DNA of 64,000 nt from Candidatus Saccharimonadales bacterium (GTDB lineage: Bacteria > Patescibacteriota > Saccharimonadia > Saccharimonadales > DATKHC01). The position numbers were made by a program, and so were the translations under genes. Location of the stretch: the NCBI GenBank assembly GCA_038317055.1, contig JBBQBA010000001.1, positions 344,153-408,152 of the forward strand, given 5' to 3'. Positions 682 through 23,870 of the stretch are shown piece after piece (within the stretch, counting starts at the first letter, position 1; each line of letters starts with the position of its first letter). The notes under the pieces were generated by a model. That model worked only from the letters and a program-made list of their open reading frames with translations. It did not search any database and was not told the DNA's origin.

Positions 682-3513
682 TTATGCATCTATGTCTGCT
701 CGGCCACCACCACCAGTAGTATCATACGGATCATTTGATCTTTGTGGCGGAGCTTCAGCACGTCGTAGCATTCTACCTAAGCCTTCAGGATCTTGTTCTG
801 CAATATCTCTAATGATCTTCGAATTCGATGCAGAGCCATTAATCATATTATTAACATGTTGTTGATTTAATGGTGAGGCATAGCCCTTCTGGGTATCATA
901 TTGAGACATTTGCCCAACTGTTCTAATTGCATCATGTAATGCAGCTTCTCGATCTGCCTGTGGCTTTGAGGTGTCTTGCCAAGTAGAGATGCTTTTACCG
1001 AGGTGTTTACTTAAGGTCTCAGTGATGTTCTTAACTTGTTTTGGTTTGCCTCTAAGTGCGGTGACTGGATCAGCGGCTTGAGCAGCATCTAAGTTTGCCT
1101 GATCATAATCTCGTTCACCGGCATCCGCTGTTACTAATTTATTTAGAGACCCAAAACCAGGAGCTAAATCGTATCTACCAACTTCTTTAGCTCTTGAGTT
1201 GGCAAATCCAGCCAAACTTGTTTTGGTTGACATATTGCCTTTGGCAGATCGGTCTAGGGTTTCAGTCATATCCTTCATATCTTCATATCCAGTGCCGGTG
1301 GTAACCAGTTGTTGTGCGGCAGCATAGGACGCACCCTTTTCACCAGCTCCCCATCCAAATCCAGCTGCTTGCCATGATCTAATTGCATCATTAACCCGAC
1401 CAGGAACTTTATCGGGATCAGTACCATCAGCATTATATCTTGAAGTTAAGGCTGCTCTAGCTTCAGCTGCTGAACCATATGTTCCAGCCCTTAGTGCCTC
1501 TTCATGGTTAGCTATAGCCTGGAAGTTTTCACTCTTCATTATTTCCGCACCACGCTTTATGGTGGTTTGGTTATCTGCTGAATTACCTCGAACACCTAAG
1601 CCGAAACTTCCACCAAATCCCTGTCCAACTCCTCTAGATACTGTGTTTAGTCGGTTAGACAGTCTATTTGAACCTGGTATGTAATCTCTTCCGTGAAACC
1701 TTTCACCTTGCTTGAGGGCCGCTGCATTCTGACTAAGTTTGTTTCTTCTAAATTGGCCAAGAGGTTTGTTGATACTTCTTTGAAGTCCGCCCACCATACC
1801 GCCAACATTTGATAGTATGCCACCGGCCATCCTAAATGTCAGAGGTATAAGAAAATATGGTCCAAAGTAGGCAACCATAGCAGTAACTTGTTGTACTGCT
1901 CCAGCTCCTTGTACGTTAGGGCCGGTTGCGGAAAGCGCAAACACACGTCCAATTGCAATAAAACCAGCAATTATTGGGAACATTATTAGTGCTTTACTAA
2001 AATTCTCCCACCAGAACTTCCATACTTTCTGTGTTCCGGGTAGGATAAAACAAGCAATCGCAATAGGTGCAAAAATGGCCATGAAAACGATGAATATCTG
2101 TCTGAATGTTAGTAGAGCAAAACCAATAATTACTGCTAGGGCTGCCGTTAACGCAAAGCTAAGTAGTCCAATTAATCCCAGTCCAAGTAAACTAACGCCA
2201 CTAATGATTGCAAGAGCCGAAGAACCTGTCTGATTAATTGTAATACCACCATTTTTAGCTAAACCTACAAATGGCGCATAAATTAGATATCTTATCCCAA
2301 CGCCCAGATCATTTGAAATCTGAACCATTAACTGAACAAGCTCCCAAGACAATGCAATTCCTATAACAGCAATTATCATTCTTGGGAGTACTTTTTTAAT
2401 CGTATATGCATCAAAGACTTCGAAACCAAGAGCTTGAGAAATGACCATAATTAAAGCAGCTATTACAACAATACCAATAGCTATAGTTCTTAAGTTCTGC
2501 CAAGCCAGGTAATAGCCTTCTGATTCGGGGTTACCGTTACCGCTACAAGACTGGCCGTTGGCTGGAATAGTATTTATGTTATTTGGTGAGCTTGTTGGAT
2601 TAAAATACTGACAACCATTTATATCTAAAAGCGACGTAATTTGAGTATCCAAATAACCAACCATTGCGTTTGCCGCATCTACTATCGGACAAATTAACCA
2701 TGTAAGTGGATTCAGATCGACATTACATGTTAGGCCAATTGTTGCTGTTTGTTGGGCTGTAGATGTTGAAGTAGGGCCAGATGAAGACGTAACTGCCGTA
2801 GCTGTACCAGCACCAGCGCCACTTCCTGCAGTACATGCGGCTTTATCTGCACCAGTATAGTTGTTACATGCTGTGGTTGCGGCACCATCTCTTGACGCGC
2901 CATTCCAACCATTTACACAAGCTTTAAATTGCGAGTTAGTTGTGAACTTAAGATTTGTACAGGCCACGCCAGCGGTTGATGCGGCCGCTGAAGCGTTATA
3001 ACCTGTTTTACAAGCTTCAACTATCACTGCTCCGTTATTTACGTTCGCAGCCTGAATATTTTTACAATAATCGCTTCCTTGGCCTTGTTCACCAAGCGTA
3101 AAAGCATAGTTACATGCTATAAATGAACCATTCTGGTTGTTGCCGATAAAAGATGCATTATACGGGTTGTTGCTGTATTTAGCACATGCAGAATTTCCTG
3201 CATTATTTGTGTTCAGACCAGCAGCGGCTCCGGCTTTAACACCAGCTAAACATGAGTCATAGTTTGGGCCAGCCTGACCCAGGCCACCACAATTACCAAG
3301 TCCACCACCATTTGGCCTTGCTAAACCTTCAGCGTAACCGGTTTCACAAGGTGTAAGTAGGGCACCAGTTTTGCCTAGGTTTATGCAAGTTATACTCGCT
3401 GCGTCGTTTGCAGCTGCTGAAGCATTCCCCTGAACAACACCGGACAAAACAATAGTTACTAAAACAACAAGAGATATACCCGCAAAAACTGACTTTAGTT
3501 TTGATAAATGCAT
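682..3513 (-). CDS. VirB6/TrbL-like polytopic type IV secretion membrane protein with a Cys-rich ectodomain and a long C-terminal tail
   Basis: 943-aa ORF with a signal-like N-terminus, a ~200-aa Cys/Ala/Gly-rich region and an S/T linker. A block of hydrophobic helices (about aa 340-600) is followed by a ~370-aa polar tail. It lies directly upstream of the PrgI-like gene on the same strand. Confidence 0.5.
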   Translation of the reverse strand: MHLSKLKSVFAGISLVVLVTIVLSGVVQGNASAAANDAASITCINLGKTGALLTPCETGYAEGLARPNGGGLGNCGGLGQAGPNYDSCLAGVKAGAAAGLNTNNAGNSACAKYSNNPYNASFIGNNQNGSFIACNYAFTLGEQGQGSDYCKNIQAANVNNGAVIVEACKTGYNASAAASTAGVACTNLKFTTNSQFKACVNGWNGASRDGAATTACNNYTGADKAACTAGSGAGAGTATAVTSSSGPTSTSTAQQTATIGLTCNVDLNPLTWLICPIVDAANAMVGYLDTQITSLLDINGCQYFNPTSSPNNINTIPANGQSCSGNGNPESEGYYLAWQNLRTIAIGIVVIAALIMVISQALGFEVFDAYTIKKVLPRMIIAVIGIALSWELVQLMVQISNDLGVGIRYLIYAPFVGLAKNGGITINQTGSSALAIISGVSLLGLGLIGLLSFALTAALAVIIGFALLTFRQIFIVFMAIFAPIAIACFILPGTQKVWKFWWENFSKALIMFPIIAGFIAIGRVFALSATGPNVQGAGAVQQVTAMVAYFGPYFLIPLTFRMAGGILSNVGGMVGGLQRSINKPLGQFRRNKLSQNAAALKQGERFHGRDYIPGSNRLSNRLNTVSRGVGQGFGGSFGLGVRGNSADNQTTIKRGAEIMKSENFQAIANHEEALRAGTYGSAAEARAALTSRYNADGTDPDKVPGRVNDAIRSWQAAGFGWGAGEKGASYAAAQQLVTTGTGYEDMKDMTETLDRSAKGNMSTKTSLAGFANSRAKEVGRYDLAPGFGSLNKLVTADAGERDYDQANLDAAQAADPVTALRGKPKQVKNITETLSKHLGKSISTWQDTSKPQADREAALHDAIRTVGQMSQYDTQKGYASPLNQQHVNNMINGSASNSKIIRDIAEQDPEGLGRMLRRAEAPPQRSNDPYDTTGGGGRADIDA

Positions 3514-3765: not shown

Positions 3766-4554
3766 ATGCACATCTTAAAAATCGCTAAAACCAATCAAAT
3801 CTTAAATAAAAAAACTTTTAAATATTTTTTCATATTTCTTTTTCTTACAGTCTTAATTACTTCAGGTATTAAAAGTGCAAGTTATGCCGATACCCCCGTG
3901 GGTCAAGCTTATTGCTATCTTTCCCAGACTGGCATAACCTACGTTTGCGGACCTGGACCTCAAAAAGCACTTATAGGTGGTTATAGTGGAACTATTACAT
4001 CAGATCAACAATGGGGAAATGTATGTACGACACTGCCGATACAAGGTACTGACGGCAAAATAATTCCAGCCGGAGGATGTAACAGCAGTGGTGATAGTCC
4101 TCTTTCTCAATTCTCAAATGGAACTTGTTATATAGAAGGTGTAAATTCAAGCGGTAATGACGTTTGGATTGCCCAAAAAGACTGTACTTCCGCAAATTTT
4201 TCAAATATTGCTCCAGCCACAACCAATATGCCGACGGATATTACAAACTGGACCCAGGACACGGCAGTCGGAAGCTGTGGACTAAACACTAACTCAGGAA
4301 GTGGTTCGGGCACATGTGACCTGGTTCAAAAATATATAAACCCTACTATTGATTTTCTAGCAGCGGCAGTCGGAATTATTTGTGTAATATCAGTTGTACT
4401 TGGAGGTATCCAATATTCTGCATCAGCCGACAATCCGCAAGCATCCGCAGCAGCTAAGAAACGAATTGCTAATGCAGTACTAGCCGCAGTTGTTTTCCTT
4501 TTTCTTTGGGGCTTCCTTCAATTTATCGTACCAGGAGGGTTACTGAATGGTTAG
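3766..4554 (+). CDS. pilin-like T4SS/conjugal-transfer protein (VirB2/TrbC-like), paralog 1 of 6, with a large Cys-rich ectodomain
   Basis: 262 aa with an N-terminal signal/TM and 8 Cys in the ectodomain. The C-terminal two-helix hairpin AAAVGIICVISVVLGGIQYSASADNPQASAAAKKRIANAVLAAVVFLFLWGFLQFI is shared with the five following genes. Confidence 0.55.
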   Translation: MHILKIAKTNQILNKKTFKYFFIFLFLTVLITSGIKSASYADTPVGQAYCYLSQTGITYVCGPGPQKALIGGYSGTITSDQQWGNVCTTLPIQGTDGKIIPAGGCNSSGDSPLSQFSNGTCYIEGVNSSGNDVWIAQKDCTSANFSNIAPATTNMPTDITNWTQDTAVGSCGLNTNSGSGSGTCDLVQKYINPTIDFLAAAVGIICVISVVLGGIQYSASADNPQASAAAKKRIANAVLAAVVFLFLWGFLQFIVPGGLLNG

Positions 4555-4584
4555 GATTATACGAACTAAATATAAAGGAATGAA

Positions 4585-5004
4585 ATGTTACCGATAATAT
4601 CAAGTCATATATTTAATATATTTAGTGCTACAGTTGATACTTCGTGTAACCCTGACAAAACTTTTTTTGGACTTCCCACATGGTATAAGTACATAAACGT
4701 TAGTACCAATACAGACAAAACATGCAATTTTTCAAAATTTACTTTTTTTACACCACAGCACGTTTTTGCTCCGGGTAATATTTTTCTAATTCTACTTGCA
4801 ATATTAGACGACTTATTAATTATTGCTGGTGTTGTTGCAGTAGTTTTTGTAATCTACGGAGCAGTACAATTTATTATTGGTCAAGGAGAACCCGAGAGAA
4901 TAAAACACGCTCAAGGAACTATTCTAAATGCAGTAATTGGGCTAGTAATAGCAATTATTGCCGCCGCACTTGTAAACTTCCTTGGTAACTCACTAGCAGG
5001 TTAA
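4585..5004 (+). CDS. pilin-like T4SS protein (VirB2/TrbC-like), paralog 2
   Basis: 139 aa. Contains FFGLPTWYKYI and the C-terminal hairpin AGVVAVVFVIYGAVQFIIGQGEPERIKHAQGTILNAVIGLVIAIIAAALVNFL. An AAAGGAA RBS lies upstream. Confidence 0.6.
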   Translation: MLPIISSHIFNIFSATVDTSCNPDKTFFGLPTWYKYINVSTNTDKTCNFSKFTFFTPQHVFAPGNIFLILLAILDDLLIIAGVVAVVFVIYGAVQFIIGQGEPERIKHAQGTILNAVIGLVIAIIAAALVNFLGNSLAG

Positions 5005-5013
5005 AATAGATAT

Positions 5014-5361
5014 ATGAAAATATTGACACTTTCAACTAAATTTAAAATAGTAATTATTCCAATGGCCTTTGTATTAATTGCCAAAAGTTATGTAAGTGCT
5101 CAGACTCCAATATCGGTTCAAACTTTGCCTCAAGTTAATACTGATAATTCTGAGTTTAAAATAATATTAAATATATTTTTCGGATTAATTGGTTCGATTG
5201 CTTTACTCGTTATTGTAATAGCGGGTTTTAGATATATTGTTTCAAGGGGCGAACCCCAGGAAATCGCGCGGGCTAAAAATACAATTATTTATGCGATCGT
5301 TGGATTAGTAATTGCAATATTGGCGTTTTCAATTGTTAATTTTGTTGTAGGAAACCTATGA
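5014..5361 (+). CDS. pilin-like T4SS protein, paralog 3
   Basis: 115 aa with a signal peptide. C-terminal hairpin: IALLVIVIAGFRYIVSRGEPQEIARAKNTIIYAIVGLVIAILAFSIVNFV. Confidence 0.6.
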   Translation: MKILTLSTKFKIVIIPMAFVLIAKSYVSAQTPISVQTLPQVNTDNSEFKIILNIFFGLIGSIALLVIVIAGFRYIVSRGEPQEIARAKNTIIYAIVGLVIAILAFSIVNFVVGNL

Positions 5362-5786
5362 CCATATTCAATTCACTTACTAAAAAAATTATTGTAAGCC
5401 TGGGTTTTTTGCTGAGTTTTTCATTTTTAATACCTATTACAGTTCATGCATCCCCCTATAATGCTTTTTGTTCAAACGGACAAATATCTCCAAACTCTGG
5501 CAGGGGTCTAGCCGGTGCTAACGCACTTTGTAAAGACAATCCTAGCTCCAATCCTCTTTATGGCCCAAGTGGAATAATAGACAAGGTGATAAACATAGTG
5601 ACTATTGTCGCTGGAGTAGCTGCAATAATTATGATCATAATAGCTGGACTTCAATTTGTACTGGCTAACGGGGATTCCAAAAGGGTAGAATCTGCTAGAA
5701 ACACAATTATATTTACCGTAGTTGGCTTAGTGGTTATCGTTTTAGCAAGATTTATTATAGAATTTGTAGTGAGTAAGATCGGTTAG
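5358..5786 (+). CDS. pilin-like T4SS protein, paralog 4
   Basis: 142 aa; ATGA overlap with paralog 3. Has a signal peptide and a Cys pair (CSNGQ...LC). Hairpin: VAGVAAIIMIIIAGLQFVLANGDSKRVESARNTIIFTVVGLVVIVLARFIIEFV. Confidence 0.6.
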   Translation: MTIFNSLTKKIIVSLGFLLSFSFLIPITVHASPYNAFCSNGQISPNSGRGLAGANALCKDNPSSNPLYGPSGIIDKVINIVTIVAGVAAIIMIIIAGLQFVLANGDSKRVESARNTIIFTVVGLVVIVLARFIIEFVVSKIG

Positions 5787-5789
5787 ATT

Positions 5790-6200
5790 ATGATTAAACA
5801 AATTACCCAAATACTACTAATTATTGCAGCACCCCTACTTATTGGGCTCTCGAGCAGTCCTAGTGCGGTTTTCGCTGACAGTGCAACAACTGGAGCATCT
5901 AACCTAGTATGTCAAGGCATAGGTACTGCAAGTGGTACGGGCGGCTGTTCGGCTGATCACGGTGCAACTAGTATTAACAGCGTTATCGCTGAAGTCGTAA
6001 ATATCCTTACTATTATTGTCGGAATTGCAGCGGTAATAATGATCGTAGTGGCTGGTTTTAGATTTGTGGTCTCTGGTGGAGACTCAGCAAATGTCGCGTC
6101 TGCTAAAAACAGCATTATTTATGTAGTAGTAGGATTAGTAGTGGTAGCACTTGCCCAAATAATAGTTCATTTTGTATTATTTAACGTCTCTAAAACATAA
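5790..6200 (+). CDS. pilin-like T4SS protein, paralog 5
   Basis: 136 aa with a signal peptide and a Cys pair (CQGIGTASGTGGC). Hairpin: IVGIAAVIMIVVAGFRFVVSGGDSANVASAKNSIIYVVVGLVVVALAQIIVHFVL. Confidence 0.6.
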   Translation: MIKQITQILLIIAAPLLIGLSSSPSAVFADSATTGASNLVCQGIGTASGTGGCSADHGATSINSVIAEVVNILTIIVGIAAVIMIVVAGFRFVVSGGDSANVASAKNSIIYVVVGLVVVALAQIIVHFVLFNVSKT

Positions 6201-6279
6201 ATACATAAGAGGTTTACTTGATGCAAATAACTCGCTATGATATAAGTAAATACAATTTCCTAAGAAAGGTAATAAATAA

Positions 6280-6693
6280 ATGATAAAAAGATTAAAAACT
6301 TTACTAATGACGCTTACTATGTCCGGTCTTATATTTCTGCCTGCCATAATTCCAGCCGGTGTTCATGCAGCTTCAAATAGTACTGGTCAATTATGTACTG
6401 GAGCAGGTCTAAAAGTTCAAGGCAGTACAACTTGTTCTAATACAAGCAATGCTATAAATGGCATTATCAAGTGGGTTCTAGACATTTTCTCAGTGATTGT
6501 TGGTATCGCAGCGGTAATTATGATCGTAGTTGGTGGTCTTAAATACACTATCTCTGGTGGAGATTCGGCTAGAGTAACAGGGGCAAAGGACACAATTCTA
6601 TTCGCAATTGTTGGTCTGGTAGTCGTTGCACTGGCGCAGATTATAGTCCACTTTGTATTATCCAACGTGCAAACAGTTGCCAACGGCAGTTAA
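6280..6693 (+). CDS. pilin-like T4SS protein, paralog 6
   Basis: 137 aa with a signal peptide and a Cys pair (CTGAGLKVQGSTTC). The hairpin is nearly identical to paralog 5: IVGIAAVIMIVVGGLKYTISGGDSARVTGAKDTILFAIVGLVVVALAQIIVHFVL. Confidence 0.6.
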   Translation: MIKRLKTLLMTLTMSGLIFLPAIIPAGVHAASNSTGQLCTGAGLKVQGSTTCSNTSNAINGIIKWVLDIFSVIVGIAAVIMIVVGGLKYTISGGDSARVTGAKDTILFAIVGLVVVALAQIIVHFVLSNVQTVANGS

Positions 6694-9964: not shown

Positions 9965-10041
9965 GCACCCGTAGTTCAGCTGGATAGAATGTCGGCTTGC
10001 GGAGCCGAAGGTCGTAGGTTCGAATCCTGCCGGGTGCACCA
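9965..10041 (+). tRNA. tRNA-Arg (anticodon GCG), CCA encoded
   Basis: GCACCCGTAGTTCAGCTGGATAGAATGTCGGCTTGCGGAGCCGAAGGTCGTAGGTTCGAATCCTGCCGGGTGCACCA. Hand-folded cloverleaf: acceptor GCACCCG/CGGGTGC, anticodon stem TCGGC/GCCGA, loop TTGCGGA. Confidence 0.85.
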
Positions 10042-10065
10042 TACTGATTATGCTATGATTATTCC

Positions 10066-10398
10066 ATGCTTAGATATTCCAGAAAACACCTAAAAGCATC
10101 AATCCTATTAGTGGTTGGAATATTAATACCAGTACTCAATTTGATACAGTCATCCAGTACAAACGCATTAACGTATTGCAATAGTAGTAAAAACACAGTC
10201 ACAGAAAACGTACTTTATTATTTGTTTATAGCTTGGCCATTTTTAATTTTCTTCGGAACTTATTATTTATTAGAAAAGATAAAGAGAAAATGGCTTCGGA
10301 TTATCACGAGTCTTCTTGCAGTTGTAATAGTTGCTACTTTGTGGCTTATCATCGCCTCCTATATAGGGCTAGGCAAATGCGGTGTTGGCGGGTATTAA
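10066..10398 (+). CDS. small hypothetical membrane protein (array unit 1)
   Basis: 110 aa with about 3 TM helices. It starts 24 nt after the tRNA, and its TAA stop abuts repeat R1. Confidence 0.5.
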   Translation: MLRYSRKHLKASILLVVGILIPVLNLIQSSSTNALTYCNSSKNTVTENVLYYLFIAWPFLIFFGTYYLLEKIKRKWLRIITSLLAVVIVATLWLIIASYIGLGKCGVGGY

Positions 10399-10465
10399 TC
10401 TAGCTCGAACCAGGCCTATATTTAAACAATTTGGTTCGAACCTCAGCCAGCGTGGTGCACCAAAC
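10399..10465 (+). repeat. array repeat R1 (split copy; the second half resembles the tRNA-Arg 3' end)
   Basis: TCTAGCTCGAACCAGGCC (10399-10416), then a 14-nt insert, then TTGGTTCGAACCTCAGCCAGCGTGGTGCACCAAAC (10431-10465). Compare the tRNA 3' end GGTTCGAATCCTGCCGGGTGCACCATAC. Confidence 0.7.
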
Positions 10466-10510
10466 TGGCTATGTATGTAATACATGTGCCTTAATATATA
10501 ATGTTTACAT

Positions 10511-10948
10511 ATGGATAATGATCAAAATCAAAACCTACAAAAGCATGAAGGTACTACTCAACAATCTACTCAACCTTATTCTGAAAACCCACAAAATAAT
10601 GCCCTACCTGCCAGTAACTACGAACAGTCACAATTTCAACCATCCAATCCTCTCAACAATTCAAAACCAAACCCAATAAAAGGTATTTTATGGATTTTAT
10701 CCCCATTTATACTATTGATTGTAATAGCTGTCCTACAAATAATTGTCCATTTTGTATTATCTACTACTGTTCCATCTCCCTCCTTGACTGATACAGGAAG
10801 TTCTACTCTAAACTCATCAACAGGAAGTACGGTTAGCTCAACAATAGTTTGGATAATAGATATAATTAGTATTTTAGCTGGAATGTTAGCAATCATACTT
10901 TTCCCTGTCGGACTAATTAAAGGGATAAAATCATTAACTAAAAAGTAA
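10511..10948 (+). CDS. hypothetical Q/N-rich membrane protein (array unit 2) sharing the QIIVHFVL helix segment with pilin paralogs 5 and 6
   Basis: 145 aa with a polar N-terminus and two TM helices. Bases 10735-10760 match 6156-6180 at 23 of 25 positions. The TAA stop abuts repeat R2. Confidence 0.55.
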   Translation: MDNDQNQNLQKHEGTTQQSTQPYSENPQNNALPASNYEQSQFQPSNPLNNSKPNPIKGILWILSPFILLIVIAVLQIIVHFVLSTTVPSPSLTDTGSSTLNSSTGSTVSSTIVWIIDIISILAGMLAIILFPVGLIKGIKSLTKK

Positions 10949-10982
10949 TCTAGTCTGAACTACGTCCAAGGTGCCGCACCAT
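10949..10982 (+). repeat. array repeat R2
   Basis: TCTAGTCTGAACTACGTCCAAGGTGCCGCACCAT; 33 of 34 positions identical to R4. Confidence 0.85.
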
Positions 10983-11017
10983 TAAGCTTATGATTAACTT
11001 AGATGTAGAATGGGCTT

Positions 11018-11359
11018 GTGAAGCCAAACACAGAATCAATTTACTTTAAGCTGTCTATACTTTTTTTATTAGCTTTCTTAGTGCACCTATTTATACTAGG
11101 CAGTTATATACGGCATTACGTATCTAGCAGTGACTCAACGATGCATAACTACAGCCCTATATTAATGTTTTTGCCTGTTATATGGGTTAGCTTAAGTGGT
11201 TTATGTTATTACATGTCTACACAAAATAAACAAACGCCTATTAGGTTGCTTATAGCCTTTACGCTTAGTCCAATAATTACAGCACCTATTCTGGGGATAA
11301 TTTATACAATAATCGTATTACTACCTCTCTACAACCTAATAAATAAAAGTGGATTTTAA
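11018..11359 (+). CDS. small hypothetical membrane protein (array unit 3)
   Basis: 113 aa with a GTG start and about 3 TM helices. Its stop lies inside the 20-nt perfect palindrome TTTTAACTGGCCAGTTAAAA (11354-11373). Confidence 0.5.
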   Translation: MKPNTESIYFKLSILFLLAFLVHLFILGSYIRHYVSSSDSTMHNYSPILMFLPVIWVSLSGLCYYMSTQNKQTPIRLLIAFTLSPIITAPILGIIYTIIVLLPLYNLINKSGF

Positions 11360-11371
11360 CTGGCCAGTTAA

Positions 11372-11405
11372 AATAGTCCGAACCACGCCCAAGGTGCCGC
11401 ACCAT
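11372..11405 (+). repeat. array repeat R3
   Basis: AATAGTCCGAACCACGCCCAAGGTGCCGCACCAT; 30 of 34 positions identical to R4. Confidence 0.85.
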
Positions 11406-11450
11406 TTCCCTTTTGCTTGCAATAATTATAGATAGTTTTAGTATTTAATT

Positions 11451-11738
11451 ATGTCACCAGAACAATCCAGCACCAGTGATGCTCCAGAACAAGATGTTAA
11501 AACTAAACGTACGAAAAGACTAGCAGTATTCATTATGAGTGATGGATCTCCTTCTTTTAGTGAATGGCAAAATCATAATGAACCTGTCGAAGAGTTTATA
11601 AATAGAATGTCACTAGAAGTTTCGAGAGGTGGTGGATTCGTCTCTTGTAGGGGTGTTGAACTTCATGAAATTAGCTCAGATCCTGAAACTACGGAATTAA
11701 TTCGACTGACTGCCCAAAATCATAGGGTATTGGAATAA
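11451..11738 (+). CDS. small hypothetical soluble protein (array unit 4)
   Basis: 95 aa with no TM helix and no recognisable family. The stop is followed 1 nt later by R4. Confidence 0.5.
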   Translation: MSPEQSSTSDAPEQDVKTKRTKRLAVFIMSDGSPSFSEWQNHNEPVEEFINRMSLEVSRGGGFVSCRGVELHEISSDPETTELIRLTAQNHRVLE

Positions 11739-11739
11739 T

Positions 11740-11773
11740 TCTAGTCCGAACTACGTCCAAGGTGCCGCACCAT
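11740..11773 (+). repeat. array repeat R4 (used as the reference copy)
   Basis: TCTAGTCCGAACTACGTCCAAGGTGCCGCACCAT. Confidence 0.85.
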
Positions 11774-11838
11774 ACATTTTGTATCTGTTAATTAGTATTA
11801 GTCACTTTAGACATTCAAATTTTTGTTATTATTAAGTT

Positions 11839-12402
11839 ATGTACTATTCTGAGTTACCTGGCGAAACCTTATTGATTCCATACGAAATTTCTGTAGCAAC
11901 ACCCGAAGATGCTTTAGGGATTTGTGAAGTACGCAAAATTGCATGGCTTAACTCTTATGAGCATGAGGATCCAGATCCTCTAAGAGTCATTACAATAGCT
12001 GATCTACAATCAAAAGACTACGACTCAGAAATAATAGTTAATTATTATAAAAGACAGGCATTAAATACTGAAGAACAGCAAATATTAGTTGCCAAAGATG
12101 CTGATAAAGTTATAGGTACAATTATAGGTAGGAGAAAAGAAGGGTTTAACACTTTTGTAACTTTCTTTGTGCTTCCGGAATATCAAGGTAAAGGAATTGG
12201 GACTCAATTACTTGATCGTACTTTATCGTGGTTTGGTAATAATAATCCCGTAAAAATAACTGTAGTCGATTATAATACCGATTCCATAGAGAAATATAAA
12301 CACTGGGGGTTTCATATAACAAGCGAACCAGAGTTACATGATACTGGGATAACGCCAAGCGGCAAGCATATATATGAAATTGAAATGACCAAAGATACTT
12401 AA
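11839..12402 (+). CDS. GNAT-family N-acetyltransferase (array unit 5)
   Basis: 187 aa. The acetyl-CoA binding motif region is VLPEYQGKGIGTQLLDRTLSW (the Q/R-x-x-G-x-G/A pattern). Confidence 0.75.
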   Translation: MYYSELPGETLLIPYEISVATPEDALGICEVRKIAWLNSYEHEDPDPLRVITIADLQSKDYDSEIIVNYYKRQALNTEEQQILVAKDADKVIGTIIGRRKEGFNTFVTFFVLPEYQGKGIGTQLLDRTLSWFGNNNPVKITVVDYNTDSIEKYKHWGFHITSEPELHDTGITPSGKHIYEIEMTKDT

Positions 12403-12428
12403 CTTTTTTGGAGTTGAATTATGAATAA

Positions 12429-12462
12429 TCAAGTCCGAACCTCGTATAGTACGCCACACCAT
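12429..12462 (+). repeat. array repeat R5 (most diverged full-length copy)
   Basis: TCAAGTCCGAACCTCGTATAGTACGCCACACCAT; 23 of 34 positions match R4 in an ungapped alignment. Confidence 0.6.
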
Positions 12463-12475
12463 GCCAGTTATGCTT

Positions 12476-12502
12476 AAATGACTTCCCCTTGAAGTCATTT
12501 TT
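12476..12502 (+). terminator. rho-independent terminator after array unit 5
   Basis: AAATGACTTC-CCCTT-GAAGTCATTT followed by TT; a perfect 10-bp stem running into a T-run. Confidence 0.7.
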
Positions 12503-12522
12503 ATTAATGGTATAGTTACTTT

Positions 12523-12750
12523 ATGAAAAATAATACAAAAAATAATCCCATATGGTTTAAATATAATGGACTTTTAGGTAAGGGCTTTAGGCCTATAAGT
12601 CGACAAGGGTGGTATGTTACTGTCAGTTTTATTTTGTTATTAAGTATAGACTTATATCTCGCTACTTTCTTAAATGTAATATTAGTTTTAGGTATAGCTA
12701 TTGTATTAGCGATAACCTTATATGTAATTATGTTAAAAACAAGCGAATAA
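12523..12750 (+). CDS. small hypothetical membrane protein (array unit 6)
   Basis: 75 aa with two TM helices. The TAA stop abuts R6. Confidence 0.5.
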   Translation: MKNNTKNNPIWFKYNGLLGKGFRPISRQGWYVTVSFILLLSIDLYLATFLNVILVLGIAIVLAITLYVIMLKTSE

Positions 12751-12784
12751 CCTTGGCCGAATTACGTCCAAGGTGCTGAACCAT
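12751..12784 (+). repeat. array repeat R6 (last copy)
   Basis: CCTTGGCCGAATTACGTCCAAGGTGCTGAACCAT; 28 of 34 positions identical to R4. Confidence 0.8.
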
Positions 12785-13279: not shown

Positions 13280-13533
13280 TACTTTTCCTTTATTAATTTT
13301 TGTGTTTATCCGTAACAATAGTGTTATATAAGCATAAGCTTGACCGATTGTCAATATACTATCAATACATATAACATCTCATATAAAGATTATGTATAGA
13401 ATCTACGGATTGTTAAATAACTAACATACGTACCTAAACAATCTATATATAATAATCAATTCTGATAAAGCAGTAGCATTATTGGGAGTACTCTTTAAGT
13501 TTCAATAATATTTAATAAGTTGGGAGAATTTAT

Positions 13534-14580
13534 ATGATAAGAACAATAACTCGTTTGAGTGTTCAAAGTGTAACAATAGCTACAGCCGCATGTTTAGGCT
13601 TAAGTGGTGCAGCCTCAGCGGCCAGTATTAGTAACACAGGACCAGAATCAACTAATATAATCAGTAGTTCTAACGGTAGTGGATCAGGAAGTTGGAGTAG
13701 CTCTTGGTCAGATAATTCCGGCAATCATATGAAAAATAATGGATCATGGAATGATTGGGATCCATCAACATGTATGGCTCAAGGCCAAACTTTCAGTAGT
13801 TGGTGGAGTGGCATGATGGGCCATATGGGTAGATATAGTGGTATGCAATGGATGCATGCAAAAAACAGTAGTTGGATGCCAAGTGGCAATAACTGGCAAT
13901 CATCGTGGTCAAACTGGAATCCATCAACTTGGCAAAGCAATGGCCAAAGTTATGGTAATTGGTATGGTCAGATGCTTGGCTTTATGACTTCTCATCACAA
14001 TAATTGGATGAATAATTGGGTAAGTCATCCAAATGTATCATCAAGTGTTGAAAGTAGCACTGGTAACTCAGGTGCGGCTACTATAAGTAATACTGGACCA
14101 GAGTCAACAAATGTTATTGAATCAAGTTCAGGCAATAGCTTTAGGAGTACAAATAATAATAACGTGAATGTTAACAGTTCTAGTAACCAGACAGCACGCA
14201 CAGGCAACGCTAACGTCACCGAAAATACTTGGGGTGGTTCAGCTGTTTCAGGAAATGCTAGCAACCAGAGCAGTTCACAAACAGATGTTCAAGTTACAAA
14301 TAATAGTAATAAGAATAATGATGTTTCAAGTAACTCCGGTGCGGGTGGTGGAAGTATTAGTAACACCGGCCCTGGTTCTTCAAATGAGATAAGCTCGTCA
14401 TCATGGAACAGTCATAGTTCAACTAATAACAACAATATAAATAGCTCAACCAGCAATACACAATCGGCAAGTACAGGTAATGCAAGTGTAAGCGAAAATA
14501 CGACTGGCGGTAGTGCTAGGAGTGGTTCAGCTATGAACTCAAGTGAAATTTCTTTGAAGGTTGGTATTACAAATAATTAA
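13534..14580 (+). CDS. secreted Ser/Asn-rich repeat protein with three ISNTGP modules and a Trp/Met/His-rich insert
   Basis: 348 aa with a signal peptide ending ASAAS. It has three modules starting ISNTGPESTN, ISNTGPESTN and ISNTGPGSSN. Modules 2 and 3 continue ...NNNN-N-SS-Q-A-TGNA-V-ENT-GGSA-SG-A-N. A GGGAGA RBS lies upstream. Confidence 0.65.
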   Translation: MIRTITRLSVQSVTIATAACLGLSGAASAASISNTGPESTNIISSSNGSGSGSWSSSWSDNSGNHMKNNGSWNDWDPSTCMAQGQTFSSWWSGMMGHMGRYSGMQWMHAKNSSWMPSGNNWQSSWSNWNPSTWQSNGQSYGNWYGQMLGFMTSHHNNWMNNWVSHPNVSSSVESSTGNSGAATISNTGPESTNVIESSSGNSFRSTNNNNVNVNSSSNQTARTGNANVTENTWGGSAVSGNASNQSSSQTDVQVTNNSNKNNDVSSNSGAGGGSISNTGPGSSNEISSSSWNSHSSTNNNNINSSTSNTQSASTGNASVSENTTGGSARSGSAMNSSEISLKVGITNN

Positions 14581-18811: not shown

Positions 18812-20884
18812 TCATTTACTCAGTTGCAGTACAGTTATTGAACTTGGTGGAAATGTAGCAACTAGTTTACCGTTAACTAGATTGCTATTTTTTTGTACAA
18901 AACCAACAACACCAGGGTCAATAGGCGTGTTGTATGCCAAGAAATTGTTTGAACCTAACGTCCAACTCTTTACGGTTTTATAGCTATTAATGGACGGTTG
19001 TACTTGGGTTTTGACACTTTTTTGTTCAGAGAAATTAATTATCATCATAGATTCATTTCCTTGATTATCGGTTGTAGCTAGTGAAGATAGAGTAGGATAG
19101 CTACCACCGTTAAATACTGTATTTGGGTTGTTGGTAATATTTGAATTAACAAGGTTTGAATAGAGCAATTTAGAATACGCCTGCATAACATAAGCACTAG
19201 GTTGAAGTATTGAGTTTGGTCCTGGCCCACCTATTAGTGCATTGTTTGAAAACGTAGAGCTATTTACATATGTTTTATAGCCTGGCGCAGCTGAGTTTTG
19301 GTAAGAAATTAAATAATGTTTTTCGGCAATTGGTATATGAGCGTTTATCATCACTCTAAGCGAATTCGCAACAAATAGTGCCATGTCTTGAGATCTATGA
19401 TAATTTGGTTGACCATATGGATAAGTTAGAGCATTAACTCCATATTCTGTAACCGCTAAATTAATGTCTTTAGCTCGCTTCCCTGCATACTGATTTATGG
19501 CGGATTGCTCTGATTTTAATACAGTACCAAAATTGTTACTCTGTTGAATTAAACTGTTATGAAAAAGTGATGCAGAACTGTTAGTTGAGATTATTTGACC
19601 GGCATATAAATGGGATGCTAGACAATCATACGGCGTGGTTGATCCCATCAATTGTATAAAGTCGATTGCCTCATAAGCAGAGCAAATCTTGGCTTTCGGA
19701 TCTGCGGCTTTCATTAAATTGTAGTACTGGATAAATCCGTCGTGTGGACCTGACCGATAATTAATACTGACAGTAGCATTGTTAGGAACAATTGCTCCAT
19801 TAACTCCATCACCAAATGTTATTTTACCGGTGATATTATCTAGTAAATAATCGTGTGAATTTCCAGAAACACCCGCAAGACTATTAACCTTCACCCAGGC
19901 TATTCCATTAACAAATACAACCTGACTACCCGATACGATTGGAGGGTATTCAGCGTAGAAAACTTGATTAGGACTTCTATTACCGGCAGTGCTGTTATTA
20001 GTTGCCAAAGTTTTTTGATTACTAAATGATGTGACACCACCATATACGTATTCACACAGGTGGATGTCTGTACTATTACATTGATAATTGTTGCTTCCAA
20101 TAGAAACTACTGCGCCAGACCGCCAGTAATTTTCTCCTGATAAAGACTGTGTTTCGTTGCCAATCTCCCAGACAGGAATATTATATGGCTCGGGATGTCC
20201 GTTTTTAGTTCGTAATTGCCCCCAGGAGTTTGAAATTGGTGCAGTCATATATTGAACCCAGTTTGCGGCTTCTTGGGCAGTCCCAGTTCCAAAATTAACT
20301 GTTATATCGCCAACCGAATTAGTACTACGAAGCAAGTTACCAAATTCATCAGGTCCAAAATTAGATGGAAGAAATACGTTTTGTCCCTGATATACTACGT
20401 TATCTGTTCTGCTATTTTGCTTTCCAATTGCATTTTGCCAATGGTATGTGTCGGACGGGATTCCGCCTGGGTACCTTAAGATAGATATACCAATATCTTT
20501 AGTTTGTTTTATAACGTTTGGATATAATTGGCCAGTTGTTATGTTTTGAGTACCATAACCTCCGTCATACCATATTTCATTAGCACCAAAATCTAGACCG
20601 CTAATCTTGCTACTTTTCGATAATTCACCACTTGTTATCTTTATATTTGATGAGTTTGACGAGGAATTATCAAAACTAACACTATTTTGATTTCCATAAG
20701 TTACCTTTGTATTTGAATCGGCTGATCTATCATTTGATAAATATGCACTACCACTGAGGGTTCCTCCGCTGACACTTAGAGCACTCGAAACACCCTTCCC
20801 TAACAAAATAAAACCAGAAACGATCGCTAATAGCGAAAATAACCTGATTAGTTGCCAAATATATTTATTGTGAACTCGTAACAT
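18812..20884 (-). CDS. secreted clan GH-A glycoside hydrolase, GH51 alpha-L-arabinofuranosidase-like
   Basis: 690 aa with a signal/TM anchor. LRYPGGIPSDTYHWQNAIG resembles the GH51 RYPGGN..Y.W..G.G motif. VWEIGNETQ would carry the acid/base Glu and LAVTEYGV the nucleophile Glu. Confidence 0.55.
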   Translation of the reverse strand: MLRVHNKYIWQLIRLFSLLAIVSGFILLGKGVSSALSVSGGTLSGSAYLSNDRSADSNTKVTYGNQNSVSFDNSSSNSSNIKITSGELSKSSKISGLDFGANEIWYDGGYGTQNITTGQLYPNVIKQTKDIGISILRYPGGIPSDTYHWQNAIGKQNSRTDNVVYQGQNVFLPSNFGPDEFGNLLRSTNSVGDITVNFGTGTAQEAANWVQYMTAPISNSWGQLRTKNGHPEPYNIPVWEIGNETQSLSGENYWRSGAVVSIGSNNYQCNSTDIHLCEYVYGGVTSFSNQKTLATNNSTAGNRSPNQVFYAEYPPIVSGSQVVFVNGIAWVKVNSLAGVSGNSHDYLLDNITGKITFGDGVNGAIVPNNATVSINYRSGPHDGFIQYYNLMKAADPKAKICSAYEAIDFIQLMGSTTPYDCLASHLYAGQIISTNSSASLFHNSLIQQSNNFGTVLKSEQSAINQYAGKRAKDINLAVTEYGVNALTYPYGQPNYHRSQDMALFVANSLRVMINAHIPIAEKHYLISYQNSAAPGYKTYVNSSTFSNNALIGGPGPNSILQPSAYVMQAYSKLLYSNLVNSNITNNPNTVFNGGSYPTLSSLATTDNQGNESMMIINFSEQKSVKTQVQPSINSYKTVKSWTLGSNNFLAYNTPIDPGVVGFVQKNSNLVNGKLVATFPPSSITVLQLSK

Positions 20885-22594: not shown

Positions 22595-22649
22595 TTTGTC
22601 GCTCTACATATTTTTATCTATACGAGGTAAACTTAGGGGTAATTGGATA

Positions 22650-23870
22650 TTGCTAGTGATAAAATTCAAACAACACATAAGTAAGCTCGAAACCGAAAAA
22701 ATAATTGGGATAACAGTTATAGCTGTATTAACTATCCTAGGCGTGAGCATATTAGCAGCCAGTCATGCTGCGACCACTTCTATATCGGTCGAAGTTGAAC
22801 ATGGTAATTTGAGTGGTTTAGCAACTTCACAACTAGATAGCACAACTTCGAGCGGGCATTACATAAAATTTGGTGATCCTTTTAATGTTTACAGCGGGAA
22901 GTTACTGGGGGTAAACGCCAATACTTCGGACATACCTTCATTAACCGAGCTTCATGCTACTAGTGAACGTAGTGAATTTAGCCTGGATACAACTGGTACT
23001 GTATTCAAAAGTATCGTAAATGACGGCTCAACAACGGTCAATTGGTTAAATAAAATGACCACGGCTCATATTCAGCCAATTCCATTAATGGACACATATA
23101 CTCCGATAGTTCCAGGTTCAAACGTATATATTGACCCAACTATTTGGGCAACGGCAGTGGTTAATTGGTGTCAGGTGTACTGTGCGGGAGGTTCTTTTTA
23201 TACAAATAATCCAGACGCCAACTCATTTTATGCCCCCAGAGCGCTTGAAATGCTAAATGAACCTTATGGTGGTTGGTACCGAGGAGGTGCAGTCCCGCCA
23301 ATAGGATATGCAAATATGCTAATTGCTACACGGGCAGCCTTAGATAAGGCTGGATATAGTAAAATTGCAATATTGGCGGCTACTGCTAACGCACATAGTT
23401 CTAATAGTTGGACGTTGGCAGTAGCGGCCGCAGGTGGCTATGCAGCTTCTCAAGGTCTCGCTATCCATCCATATTCTTCTGGTAACATTGTTATGCCTCC
23501 AAACGTAACACCTGATGACGGCTGGAATACTATTTATTATTACCACCAATTATTTAATATGGACGTATATGTAACAGAGGTTGGTTGGTGTACTACTAGC
23601 GTAATTGATAACTCTCCGTGTGATGGGCGAGTTCAGACAGAAGTGAATAAAGATGCTGACATTACTAATGCCATAAATCAACTTGGTAGCGTACCTTGGA
23701 TTAAAAATTTCGATTATTTTAATATGCATCCTTTTAATGAGTGTGTTACGAAAGTAAACGGAGTATGCACATTATCGAAAATTAATAGTTATGCACTATA
23801 TGATTCATCAGGAAATAAAACACCCGCCTATTCGGCTTATGAGGCAGCTGCTAAAGCGAACGGTTTTTAG
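22650..23870 (+). CDS. secreted glycoside hydrolase, GH5-like (clan GH-A)
   Basis: The track ORF starts at 22596. I prefer TTG at 22650 (AGGGG 10 nt upstream), which gives the signal peptide MLVIKFKQ...ILAASHA. ALEMLNEPYG (NEP acid/base motif) and VYVTEVGW (nucleophile Glu) are present. Confidence 0.6.
   Translation: MLVIKFKQHISKLETEKIIGITVIAVLTILGVSILAASHAATTSISVEVEHGNLSGLATSQLDSTTSSGHYIKFGDPFNVYSGKLLGVNANTSDIPSLTELHATSERSEFSLDTTGTVFKSIVNDGSTTVNWLNKMTTAHIQPIPLMDTYTPIVPGSNVYIDPTIWATAVVNWCQVYCAGGSFYTNNPDANSFYAPRALEMLNEPYGGWYRGGAVPPIGYANMLIATRAALDKAGYSKIAILAATANAHSSNSWTLAVAAAGGYAASQGLAIHPYSSGNIVMPPNVTPDDGWNTIYYYHQLFNMDVYVTEVGWCTTSVIDNSPCDGRVQTEVNKDADITNAINQLGSVPWIKNFDYFNMHPFNECVTKVNGVCTLSKINSYALYDSSGNKTPAYSAYEAAAKANGF

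Follow-up and report, generated by a model that had tools for sequence, protein, structure and literature searches.

pdif modules and Xer-exploiting elements (IMEX) are small one- or two-gene modules, often carrying toxin-antitoxin systems, which are bounded by short sites and mobilised by a recombinase that the host encodes elsewhere. In the tycheposon islands of Prochlorococcus, tandem integrations are split by partial tRNAs, degraded remnants also occur, and newer units displace older ones distally (10.1101/2020.12.28.424599). CIMEs are defined as att-flanked units without an integrase of their own that are mobilisable in trans or in cis, and decay to such att-flanked CIMEs has been described (PMC5704250). 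For the Listeria integrase, the motif of the zinc-ribbon domain occupies bp 16-24, counted from the centre, in attP and is 5 bp nearer the centre in attB (PMC3783163).

The locus presented here, from an uncultured ultra-small member of the Patescibacteria, resembles integron-like gene capture without known integron parts. Promoter-bearing mini-cassettes probably accumulate at the 3' end of tRNA-Arg(GCG) by site-specific recombination, mediated by a putative trans-acting recombinase, although we hold this view with some reserve.

Layout of the array

The window, i.e., the whole 64-kb stretch that was analysed, contains tRNA-Arg(GCG) followed downstream by six unrelated same-strand ORFs, each of which has a direct repeat of about 36 nt at or near its end (Table 1). 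The initial annotation had placed the tRNA and the six ORFs at the same positions, as borne out by ARAGORN, Rfam, and the ORF list, and its stop-to-repeat distances (0, 0, 12, 1, 26, and 0 nt for units 1 to 6) and unit lengths (424, 517, 423, 368, 689, and 322 bp) were correct. Its cargo description, four membrane proteins and two soluble ones including a GNAT acetyltransferase, holds as well: the hydrophobicity scan is consistent with membrane proteins for ORF1, 2, 3, and 6 and with soluble ones for the two others. No paralogy was detected among the six ORFs, the sole element common to the units being the repeats. The cassette 4 product is an orphan that, in a search of 5.8 billion proteins, matched nothing but itself.

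The syntenic relative L009 and L013-L017 have exactly the same tRNA over its full length. On the right, the variable interval ends at a 40-nt block. The minus-strand ORF beyond R6 is possibly a terminal unit without a site, as its body shows no relationship to the ORF that L009 has in this place.

Table 1. Features of the tRNA-Arg(GCG) array and its right edge, in window coordinates
Feature	Position	Strand	Remarks
tRNA-Arg(GCG)	9965..10041	+	ARAGORN; Rfam RF00005, 68 bits
TATGAT, -10-like, preceded by TGC (extended -10)	10054..10059	+	ends 6 nt 5' of ORF1 ATG
Cassette 1 ORF, 110 aa, hydrophobic segments	10066..10398	+	no Pfam match above cut-off
R1a, truncated left half-site TAATCTAGCTCGAACCAGGCC	10396..10418	+	profile match to model positions 1-23 only; TAA doubles as ORF1 stop codon
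R1b, complete site, subfamily I, GGTTCGAACCTCAGCCAGCGTGGTGCACCA	10427..10462	+	16-copy profile, E 8.7e-9
-10 hexamer TATAAT	10497..10502	+	ends 8 nt 5' of ORF2 ATG
Cassette 2 ORF, 145 aa, two hydrophobic segments	10511..10948	+	
Site R2	10946..10981	+	TAA is ORF2 stop codon; profile E 5e-9
-10 hexamer TAGAAT	11006..11011	+	ends 6 nt 5' of ORF3 GTG
Cassette 3 ORF, 113 aa, three hydrophobic segments	11018..11359	+	
Site R3	11369..11404	+	repeat family and profile
-10-like hexamer TAGTAT, 4/6 to TATAAT	11439..11444	+	ends 6 nt 5' of ORF4 ATG
Cassette 4 ORF, 95 aa, soluble	11451..11738	+	orphan
Site R4	11737..11772	+	repeat family and profile
-10 hexamer TATTAT	11827..11832	+	ends 6 nt 5' of ORF5 ATG
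Cassette 5 ORF, 187 aa, GNAT acetyltransferase	11839..12402	+	Pfam E 3e-13
Site R5, most divergent copy in window	12426..12461	+	repeat family and profile
Terminator-like hairpin, then T-run	12476..12500	+	between R5 and ORF6 promoter
Promoter-like TTGAAG-16-TATAGT, TG upstream	12489..12516	+	-10 ends 6 nt 5' of ORF6 ATG
Cassette 6 ORF, 75 aa, C-terminal part hydrophobic	12523..12750	+	
Site R6, final site	12748..12783	+	TAA is ORF6 stop codon; repeat family and profile
ORF between R6 and first sequence realigning with L009	12818..13354	-	no Pfam/PHROG match
40-nt block, contains TTGACC-N4-TGTCAA	13325..13364		87.5% identity to L009

A conserved site resembling the tRNA end

R2 to R6 emerged as one repeat family in the repeat search of the window. 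A profile built from them recovers its own members at E values of 5e-12 to 3e-8. The only further matches in the whole 64-kb window are R1b, at E 0.1, and R1a, at E 2.8. Ungapped identity to R4 is 33, 30, 24, and 28 of 34 for R2, R3, R5, and R6, which matches the initial count except for R5, given there as 23. Matches to R4 of at least 23/34 number five on the plus strand, none on the minus strand, and none in three shuffles of the window.

The repeat, first described as 34 nt long, proved to be a conserved site of about 36 nt running from TAA to CCA, with the consensus TAA-N4-GTTCGAAC-N12-GGTGCACCA and a T preferred at +1. Conservation ends at this position, and the right-hand side is not conserved. 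Block A (GTTCGAAC) corresponds to the tRNA T-loop and block B (GGTGCACCA) to the acceptor end, and both lie within the final 24 nt of the tRNA, GTTCGAATCCTGCCGGGTGCACCA. All copies align without gaps once anchored on the CCA, and the distance from block A to CCA is 29 nt in 21/21 sites versus 24 nt in the tRNA (+5 bp). The proposed GGTGC-N-GCACC dyad is not a constant feature of the family's members.

R1 had been taken for a single split repeat and for the middle of a graded series leading from the tRNA to R2-R6. It consists instead of a truncated half-site (R1a) and a complete site (R1b) of a different subfamily that is common to other genomes, which removes the series: core identity of R1b is 88% to both L17e and L15a in the core-identity matrix, and blastn gives 94% over 34 nt against L17e and 93% over 29 nt against the L027 site. 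Similarity to the tRNA 3' end together with its flank is significant for R1b, whose score was reached by 0/2000 shuffles, but the copies R2-R6 are weak when taken singly (p from 0.01 to not significant).

Full sites total 21 in seven loci (window, 6; L017, 5; L020, 4; L013, 2; L014, 2; L015, 1; L027, 1). In the loci where the tRNA is visible, 17/17 lie on the tRNA strand and downstream of tRNA-Arg(GCG); the four in L020 are mutually co-oriented on a contig that stops before any tRNA. A separate observation concerns the Peribacteria MAG locus L011, where a plain duplicate of the tRNA 3' end lies downstream of tRNA-Arg. The site profile has no match in the remaining 61 kb of the window, including the surroundings of its other three tRNAs, or in 72 kb from nine control Patescibacteria loci that have the 3' 32-mer of the tRNA. 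Within the window, the search for scattered copies that had been proposed found the repeat only downstream of tRNA-Arg. A generic intergenic repeat of the REP or MITE type, which the short length, intergenic position, and relatively high GC content in an AT-rich genome might bring to mind, is hardly credible given that the copies occupy one 2.8-kb stretch of the window, lie downstream of tRNA-Arg(GCG) in every tRNA-visible relative, keep a single orientation, are not palindromic, and have no terminal inverted repeats.

Position at a tRNA 3' end together with direct repeats resembling that end is also the classic signature of an ordinary tRNA island, in which larger integrase-carrying elements (prophages, ICE/IME- or tycheposon-like) would have integrated repeatedly and decayed, leaving attR scars and leftover genes. 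The Prochlorococcus tandem integrations (10.1101/2020.12.28.424599) and CIME decay (PMC5704250) are precedents. Relics are present as well: R1a is a half-site beside R1b, and L017 has an empty unit of 109 bp. The L011 duplicate fits such an origin. We nevertheless regard this origin as unlikely. The +5-bp spacing seen in 21/21 sites is absent from any functional tRNA end, so the sites cannot be displaced tRNA ends, and the initial view that they are simple scars or duplicates of this end is not supported. Site subfamilies reach 88-94% identity between genomes, above the 67-84% of the upstream flank gene at the DNA level, which argues for selection and not decay. The units measure just 0.1-0.9 kb in seven loci and appear intact, with their own promoter and an ORF stop that is often the TAA of the site, and no fragments of integrase, phage, or conjugation genes were found in the cargo tested.

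Putative promoters and the junction at CCA

A hexamer with at least 5/6 identity to TATAAT ends 6-8 nt 5' of the start codon in 5/6 window cassette ORFs, whereas such a hexamer occurs at 4.8% of random positions and in 24% of the other window ORFs. These hexamers, TATGAT of ORF1 among them, probably represent the cassettes' own promoters, with leaderless starts. The motif TTATG(C)T, located 6 nt past the CCA in some window copies and considered as a dif-like motif, corresponds to extended -10 promoters and is not general.

In locus L029, the 30 nt past the tRNA CCA are the same at 25/30 positions, from +1, as the 30 nt past internal site b of L017. The match including block B extends over 39 nt at 89.7% identity (blastn, E 9e-9), and the estimated binomial probability of the ungapped match is about 2e-9 per pair, with 435 pairs compared. 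Since the promoter module follows the tRNA CCA in L029 and the CCA of an internal site in L017, unit boundaries lie at the CCA, and at this one junction an internal site takes the place of the tRNA end on the left of one module.

Two blocks at a fixed distance with a variable spacer between them are what one typically sees in protein-binding sites, and each site precedes the promoter of the unit that follows. The sites might accordingly bind a regulator or nucleoid protein acting on neighbouring promoters, or serve as homology anchors for natural transformation with homologous or homology-facilitated recombination, and the scan of the 63 window ORFs with 120 aa or more, which yielded no recombinase, is in keeping with both. 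We give this pair of roles little credence. The next -10 hexamer lies anywhere between 12 and 54 nt away from a site, which means that the site does not belong to the promoter, and there are sites in front of empty units and of cargo on the opposite strand. A regulator site would leave the restriction to a single tRNA, the mimicry of its end, and the complete cargo turnover unexplained. Stretches of about 36 bp at 60-90% identity are poor RecA substrates.

Cargo and its turnover

Cargo across the seven loci is mutually unrelated and includes small membrane proteins, GNAT, GT2, WhiB, and HD proteins, and toxin-antitoxin pairs (MazEF, PIN, Phd-RelE/ParE), in units of one or two genes. L009 has one unrelated ORF where the window has six cassettes. 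The comparison with relatives that had been suggested thus revealed a locus that is not invariant, in which the site is conserved despite complete turnover of the cargo. The relatives are distant and the gene content of L009 differs from the window beyond the array too, so ordinary processes could also have produced the turnover. An identical cassette was not seen in two positions; what different contexts have in common is limited to the promoter module of 30 nt and an ORF start of 21 nt. Homologues of the window GNAT (55-58% identity) occur in the L020 array, adjoining tRNA-Arg(TCG) in L021, and in L022. The window, L020, and L021 are thus three lineages with GNAT homologues, at 55-61% identity, close to a tRNA-Arg gene or to its sites, and these could be old residents and not mobile cargo.

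Some cargo between plus-strand sites is encoded on the opposite strand (MazF/MazE in L017, an FHA protein in L013, PIN in L014, and Phd/ParE in L020), and site orientation is thus independent of gene orientation. This bears on the earlier suggestion of a role at the RNA level, in which the repeats would be tRNA-like 3' tags that help to process or stabilise mRNA. The sites do begin 0-26 nt past the stops of same-strand window ORFs and end in CCA. However, they have no RNAalifold consensus structure, single-sequence energies equal to those of shuffles, no Rfam match, and an acceptor 3' strand without its pairing partner sequence, and they also follow empty units. The missing fold and the constant orientation make such tags very improbable.

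Proposed mechanism

Under the favoured explanation, accumulation of cassettes by site-specific recombination, a unit would be a self-contained module. Right past the CCA it would have an extended -10 promoter for its own use, spaced for a leaderless start, followed by a single gene (some units in relatives have a divergent or opposite-strand gene pair instead) and, at the close, the site of about 36 bp. The explanation assumes that a protein recognises at the DNA level this site, a mimic of the T-loop and the acceptor/CCA end with the blocks 5 bp, or half a helical turn, wider apart. A recombinase encoded elsewhere would join the site of a unit to the tRNA 3' end or to another site, with the crossover presumably in or beside the common GGTGCACCA block. 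Head-to-tail pile-up, quick turnover, and leftover half-sites and empty units would follow from such recombination, and R1a and the L017 empty unit are the expected leavings of a decaying cassette array.

The initial cassette-array reading is thus retained for the layout, the confinement of the sites, the differing cargo, and the CCA junction, but not for the graded series or the plain scars. Counting against recombination, classical recombination sites have two arms, and a site with a non-conserved right-hand side is unusual among them. The scan of all 63 window ORFs with 120 aa or more (about 13 of them without a Pfam match) gave no recombinase, as the initial annotation had said of the window, and none was seen in related contigs.

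Comparison with known systems

Tycheposon islands and streptococcal ICE/IME/CIME accretion share with this locus the insertion at a tRNA 3' end, tandem units, and tRNA-end-like direct repeats. The units described here are 10-100 times smaller and intact-looking rather than decayed, their boundary repeats form a separate conserved family with +5-bp geometry and are not copies of the tRNA end, and no integrase-bearing member was seen in any locus.

If the centre is set between GGTG and CACC, block A falls at bp 17-24 in the sites and 12-19 in the tRNA, which recalls the attP/attB pair of large serine integrases. This parallel is taken as a resemblance only: the right half has no matching motif, the putative central dinucleotide would be palindromic, and no serine recombinase was found. 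Recombination of attP with attL is not known for canonical serine integrases, which would therefore not build tandem arrays. The pdif modules and IMEX are alike in their small one- or two-gene units, toxin-antitoxin pairs, and short sites, but the present sites lack the 11-6-11 dif-like organisation and are direct rather than alternating repeats.

Unlike integrons, the array begins at a tRNA gene and not at attI/intI, its units probably have their own promoters without reliance on Pc, and an IntI-type recombinase turned up neither in the window ORFs with 120 aa or more nor in related contigs. The sites are not attC, having no imperfect palindrome, R/L boxes, or folded strand, which confirms the initial remark that attC cores are missing. 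Integron arrays and CALINs (attC clusters without an integrase, in which the integrase is likewise not adjacent) are otherwise alike in their head-to-tail one-ORF-plus-site units of 0.1-0.9 kb with constant site orientation, in a cargo of mostly orphan small proteins, acetyltransferases, and toxin-antitoxin pairs, some of it inverted, and in a content that differs wholly between relatives.

The array and its repeats

The tRNA-Arg(GCG) gene is followed by six plus-strand ORFs (ORF1 to ORF6), whose coordinates in the initial annotation held, as did the unit lengths and the gaps from stop codon to repeat. A repeat search of the window returned R2 to R6 as one family of five direct copies. A profile built from them recovers all five at E values of 5e-12 to 3e-8, and the next matches across the 64 kb are R1b (E 0.1) and R1a (E 2.8), with no others scoring. 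Recounted identities to R4 are 33, 30, 24 and 28 of 34, three of which agree with the earlier hand count, while the third value had been given as 23. Matches of at least 23/34 to R4 number five on the plus strand, zero on the minus strand and zero in three shuffles of the window. The first repeat had been described as split, which is not the case: R1a is a truncated left half-site that begins with the ORF1 stop codon, and R1b is a full-length site that belongs to a different subfamily.

The repeats are the only DNA-level similarity between the units, and the six proteins are not paralogous to each other, which rules out tandem duplication as the origin of the cassette ORFs. Pfam supports the earlier call of ORF5 as a GNAT acetyltransferase. 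Strongly hydrophobic 19-aa segments are present in ORF1, 2, 3 and 6 and in neither ORF4 nor ORF5, and a search of 5.8 billion proteins found no homologue of ORF4. Upstream, the array is bordered by a conserved membrane protein gene and two tRNA-Ser genes. Neither repeats nor similar arrays follow the other three tRNAs of the window.

Elsewhere in the window, five tandem paralogous T4SS_pilin (TrbC/VirB2-like) genes lie upstream of an HSP20 gene, a neighborhood also present in a distant relative (L001). A 348-aa protein rich in Asn, Ser and Trp has no Pfam match and contains an ISNTGPESTN-type motif in three copies; its sequence suggests a repetitive surface protein. A eukaryote-type RNA recognition motif (RRM_1, E 5e-23) was found in a 131-aa window protein, and the fetched locus L021 has an RRM protein as well.

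Features of the window and of the fetched loci (L numbers); positions are window positions unless a locus is named
Feature	Position	Strand	Remarks
tRNA-Arg(GCG)	9965-10041	+	ARAGORN and Rfam
R1a	10396-10418		Half-site
R1b	10427-10462		Full site
R3	11369-11404		Full site
Large ORF	682-3513		No Pfam or PHROG match
Large ORF	18812-20884		No Pfam or PHROG match
Large ORF	22596-23870		No Pfam or PHROG match
Large ORF	32092-33381		No Pfam match
Large ORF	50514-52868		No Pfam match
T4SS_pilin genes	3766-6693
40-nt block	13325-13364		L009 (oriented) 1291-1330
348-aa protein	13534-14580
RRM_1 protein	26826-27221
Contig L003	10010-11382		Logan, SRR19962015
Contig L002	11353-19611		Logan, SRR19962015
tRNA-Arg(TCG) 5' fragment upstream of intact gene	L021 (reverse complement) 2430-2470 and 2557-2650
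Contig end	L013 2186-2234		OBLW0100075572.1
L017			Five sites; GT2 glycosyltransferase, MazF/MazE pair
L013			Two sites; FHA-domain protein
L014			Two sites; PIN toxin
L015			One site; Phd and RelE/ParE-like toxin (toxin called by eye)
L020			Four sites and one partial; reached via protein homologues; WhiB, HD hydrolase, Phd/ParE, GNAT
L027			One site directly 3' of a 53-aa ORF; reached via protein homologues

Sites that resemble a tRNA end

Anchored on the terminal CCA, all copies align without gaps. Two blocks are conserved, block A (GTTCGAAC), which equals the T-loop region of the tRNA, and block B (GGTGCACCA), which equals the final 9 nt of tRNA-Arg(GCG); the match to the tRNA is limited to these two blocks of 8-9 nt. 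From block A to the CCA there are 29 nt in every site versus 24 nt in the tRNA, a spacing of +5 bp in 21/21 sites. The fixed spacing and the gap-free alignment on CCA argue that the sites are not copies of the tRNA end; judged by their sequence, they are a family of their own that imitates the tRNA end at a constant +5-bp spacing. The repeats had been thought to grade into the tRNA 3' end; in comparison with shuffled controls, a likeness to that end holds for R1b, whose alignment with the T-loop, acceptor end and 3' flank of the tRNA scores above all 2000 shuffles (0/2000 reach it), but not for R2 to R6, which taken singly are marginal or non-significant. To the right of the sites, the common sequence ends one base past the CCA, and positions +1 to +30 are not conserved across the sites. 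The family can be searched for as GTTCKAAC-N12-GGTGCACCA downstream of tRNA-Arg.

A hairpin, attC-like or tRNA-like fold of the site was ruled out: across 16 copies RNAalifold detected no common structure, single sequences fold with the same energies as shuffles, and Rfam returned no match even at E up to 10. No inverted repeats occur within the sites.

When the 19 sites aligned by then were clustered, some groups were partly genome-specific (R2 to R6 of the window; L17a/b/d of L017; L20a/b of L020) and others spanned genomes (R1b, L17e and L15a, later joined by L27a; L13b and L14a/b; L17c and L20a/b). R1b matches sites of other genomes at 88% identity in the core, and blastn gives 93-94% over 29-34 nt. 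For the flanking protein gene the identity is only 67-84%, and the cargo is unrelated, which indicates that sites are conserved or exchanged independently of their surroundings. Sites of L020 terminate in CGTACCA rather than GCACCA, and the tRNA-Arg genes of L021, from an organism of the same kind, terminate in GCGTACCA. This suggests that block B may follow the tRNA acceptor end, a lead given that the anchoring tRNA of L020 lies beyond the contig end.

Related arrays and their gene content

The exact degenerate window-type repeat had zero matches in genome and metagenome contig collections, which do not include the source genome, and the window-specific site subfamily is unique to that genome. 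A search with the tRNA 3' 32-mer returned nine Patescibacteria MAG loci, which were used as controls. Among these nine, only L009 has an identical full tRNA and synteny with the window, in the order flank protein, tRNA-Arg, one unrelated 154-aa ORF and a 40-nt block matching the window at 87.5% identity. In both genomes the block, which holds the dyad TTGACC-N4-TGTCAA, lies where a minus-strand ORF begins, and the bodies of these two ORFs are not related to each other; the block may serve as an operator or promoter and mark the distal limit of the variable region. Behind the one ORF that L009 has there, an 11-mer match (p about 0.045) weakly indicates a degenerate site. In the Peribacteria MAG locus L011 (oriented), the tRNA 3' end is plainly duplicated as a direct repeat (CCTGCCGGGTGCAC) about 64 nt past the end of tRNA-Arg at 7047; this duplicate has tRNA geometry like a classical att scar, in contrast to the +5 sites.

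A metagenome search with a lineage-specific 42-mer (D-arm to variable loop) returned five contigs with an identical tRNA, and the window-derived profile matches on the same strand downstream of the tRNA in every such contig with more than 1 kb downstream. A 16-copy profile recovers the sites of the window, L013 to L015 and L017 at E values of 3e-9 to 2e-4, and no match in the nine control loci, L001 or the remaining window reached an E value under 0.7; the sites of L020 and L027 were brought in later with a 19-copy profile. The observation made in the window is confirmed and extends to a family of loci. The L013 contig terminates in Illumina adapter (AGATCGGAAGAGCGTCGTGTAGGGAAAGAGTGT...), a contig-end assembly artefact. 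Anticodon GCG is kept in all relatives fetched via tRNA-Arg, and L021 has GCG and TCG isoacceptors; bacteria usually decode CGN with ACG (inosine).

A reading as dispersed repeats of the REP or MITE kind is disfavored: in the window and the fetched loci, site copies are confined to array loci, as the initial annotation expected of cassette sites, instead of being scattered.

No cargo is common to the window, L009 and L013 to L017, the sites being the only match. Relative to the bracketing sites, the MazEF, FHA, PIN and Phd/ParE genes are on the opposite strand, and L017 contains an ORF-less 109-bp unit flanked by two sites. Site orientation is that of the tRNA regardless of gene strand, also after empty units, so the site acts in DNA and not in mRNA, in agreement with the absent fold and the absent Rfam match. 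The suggestion that the repeats are RNA tags is therefore disfavored.

A phage origin of the cargo was dropped, as cassette proteins had no PHROG matches beyond generic acetyltransferase families. The three site patterns had no matches in viral contigs or chance matches within one phage gene, and the tRNA 3' 25-mer matched only phage-borne tRNA-Arg(TCT) genes there, with no attP. The GNAT gene as a travelling cassette was also dropped, since its homologues are 55-61% identical and stand in differing arrangements, which does not demonstrate cassette transfer. In L021, a GNAT homologue 56% identical to ORF5 converges on the 3' end of tRNA-Arg(TCG), with a 16-nt gap and no site; about 120 nt before this intact tRNA gene there is a 5' fragment of it (GCGCCCGTAGCTCAGCG).

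Unit boundaries and the search for a recombinase

All 90-nt right-hand flanks of sites and tRNAs were compared pairwise. The best pair was the flank of the tRNA in locus L029 and that of L017 internal site b, with 25/30 identical positions from +1 in both and a score of 40, where 2000 shuffles reached at most 31; including block B, blastn aligns 39 nt at 89.7% (E 9e-9). The common piece is a predicted promoter (TTGACA, 17 nt, then TG-n-TAGAAT or TG-n-TAATGT), and the ORFs behind it differ. This match indicates that one module can have either a tRNA end or an internal site as its left neighbor and that the unit boundary lies at the CCA or in the 9-bp block common to site and tRNA. The first 21 nt (MSIENE) of the ORF after L17b are shared with the first cassette of L027.

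Five of the six window cassette ORFs have a hexamer matching TATAAT in at least 5/6 positions and ending 6-8 nt before the start codon, versus 4.8% of random positions and 24% of other window ORFs. Upstream of ORF6, an independent promoter scan found TTGAAG-16-TATAGT with an upstream TG, immediately preceded by a terminator-like hairpin. We infer from these motifs that each unit is probably its own leaderless transcription unit, unlike integron cassettes. The site itself was ruled out as part of the next promoter by spacing that varies from 12 to 54 nt.

Two Logan contigs of the source run SRR19962015 (L003 and L002) are 100% identical to the window and overlap by exactly 30 nt (k-1; 11353-11382), ending ...AGTCCGAA inside R3, which places an assembly-graph branch at the start of R3. 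A site that varies within the population could cause the branch, as could a mere SNP; an R3-left/R6-right hybrid would branch at the same base, and so would a SNP.

A Pfam scan of all 63 window ORFs of at least 120 aa, about 13 of which have no match, found no tyrosine or serine recombinase, transposase or HUH family. No recombinase was found among the called genes of L020 or seen adjoining the array in related contigs, so any recombinase acts in trans. A novel one may be among the five large window ORFs (424-943 aa) without a Pfam match.

In large serine integrases, the outer motif bound by the zinc-ribbon domain lies at bp 11-19 in attB and bp 16-24 in attP, where attB has it 5 bp nearer the center (PMC3783163). 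With the center of our sequences set at GGTG|CACC, block A spans bp 12-19 of the tRNA and bp 17-24 of the sites. A right-half counterpart of block A, as in a symmetric serine-integrase half-site, was not found in the right flanks of the sites, and canonical large serine integrases would not build tandem arrays. The parallel is a hint about geometry by analogy, without assigning the enzyme. A dif/Xer-like right arm (TTATGCT at +7) was rejected, being present in some junctions only and explained by extended -10 boxes.

Discussion

The locus is best explained as a cassette array, a reading that we hold to be somewhat probable on the sequence comparisons, and from which we infer movement of units and a recombinase. 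The main rival is decay of ordinary tRNA-integrated elements. As in a tRNA-anchored island, the region starts at a tRNA-Arg 3' end and its content varies among relatives. Tandem tRNA integration would leave direct copies of the tRNA 3' segment (att core) at the unit boundaries, and none of the 21 sites is such a copy; nor was a cognate integrase found in the window, which is 64 kb of a 491,555-bp contig, or in the fetched loci.

Beyond the cassette array as such, we tentatively raise the rather less likely idea of a previously undescribed gene-cassette capture system of Patescibacteria, analogous to integrons and built of different parts. The tRNA-Arg(GCG) 3' end would serve as reception site, the cassette site would be a 36-bp unstructured mimic of the tRNA end with a fixed +5-bp offset, cassettes would bring their own leaderless promoters, and the chemistry would fall to an unlinked recombinase, possibly of a new type. 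No published description of such arrays in Saccharibacteria, Patescibacteria or CPR was found within the literature searched.

Patescibacteria (CPR) have tiny genomes, and to our knowledge their acquisition and exchange of accessory genes are poorly understood. If true, the system would be a compact dedicated platform to stockpile and exchange single genes (membrane proteins, toxin-antitoxin pairs, modifying enzymes) and a second, independent answer to the integron problem, in which the site works by tRNA-end mimicry and not as a folded attC. The fixed 5-bp offset offers a structural hypothesis of how the putative enzyme distinguishes the chromosomal target from the cassette site. Since the site pattern is easily searched, the idea is directly testable in metagenomes, reads and recombination assays.

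REPs and MITEs are dispersed, palindromic or TIR-bearing and found in both orientations, unlike the sites across the 64-kb window and fetched loci. A tRNA-like RNA element has an acceptor/T-arm fold and a covariance-model match, and the sites have neither. The pdif modules and IMEX have two 11-bp arms around a 6-bp spacer, an organization the sites lack; dif was compared by eye, with what we take to be the E. coli sequence. The array resembles the tandem accretion of att-flanked non-autonomous elements at tRNA genes, as in CIMEs and tycheposon islands, but its boundary repeats are not tRNA copies and its units are 0.1-0.9 kb in size, with no trace of integration or transfer genes.

In its layout of co-oriented ORFs with a 3' site, the locus works like an integron array or CALIN. 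The imperfect inverted repeats (R''-L''...L'-R') and single-strand fold of attC are absent from the sites. In place of the intI and attI that a complete integron carries beside its first cassette, the conserved membrane protein gene and two tRNA-Ser genes lie upstream, and no recombinase was found among the 63 window ORFs or the called genes of L020. Integron cassettes are mostly promoterless, whereas here five of six carry their own -10 hexamer at leaderless spacing.
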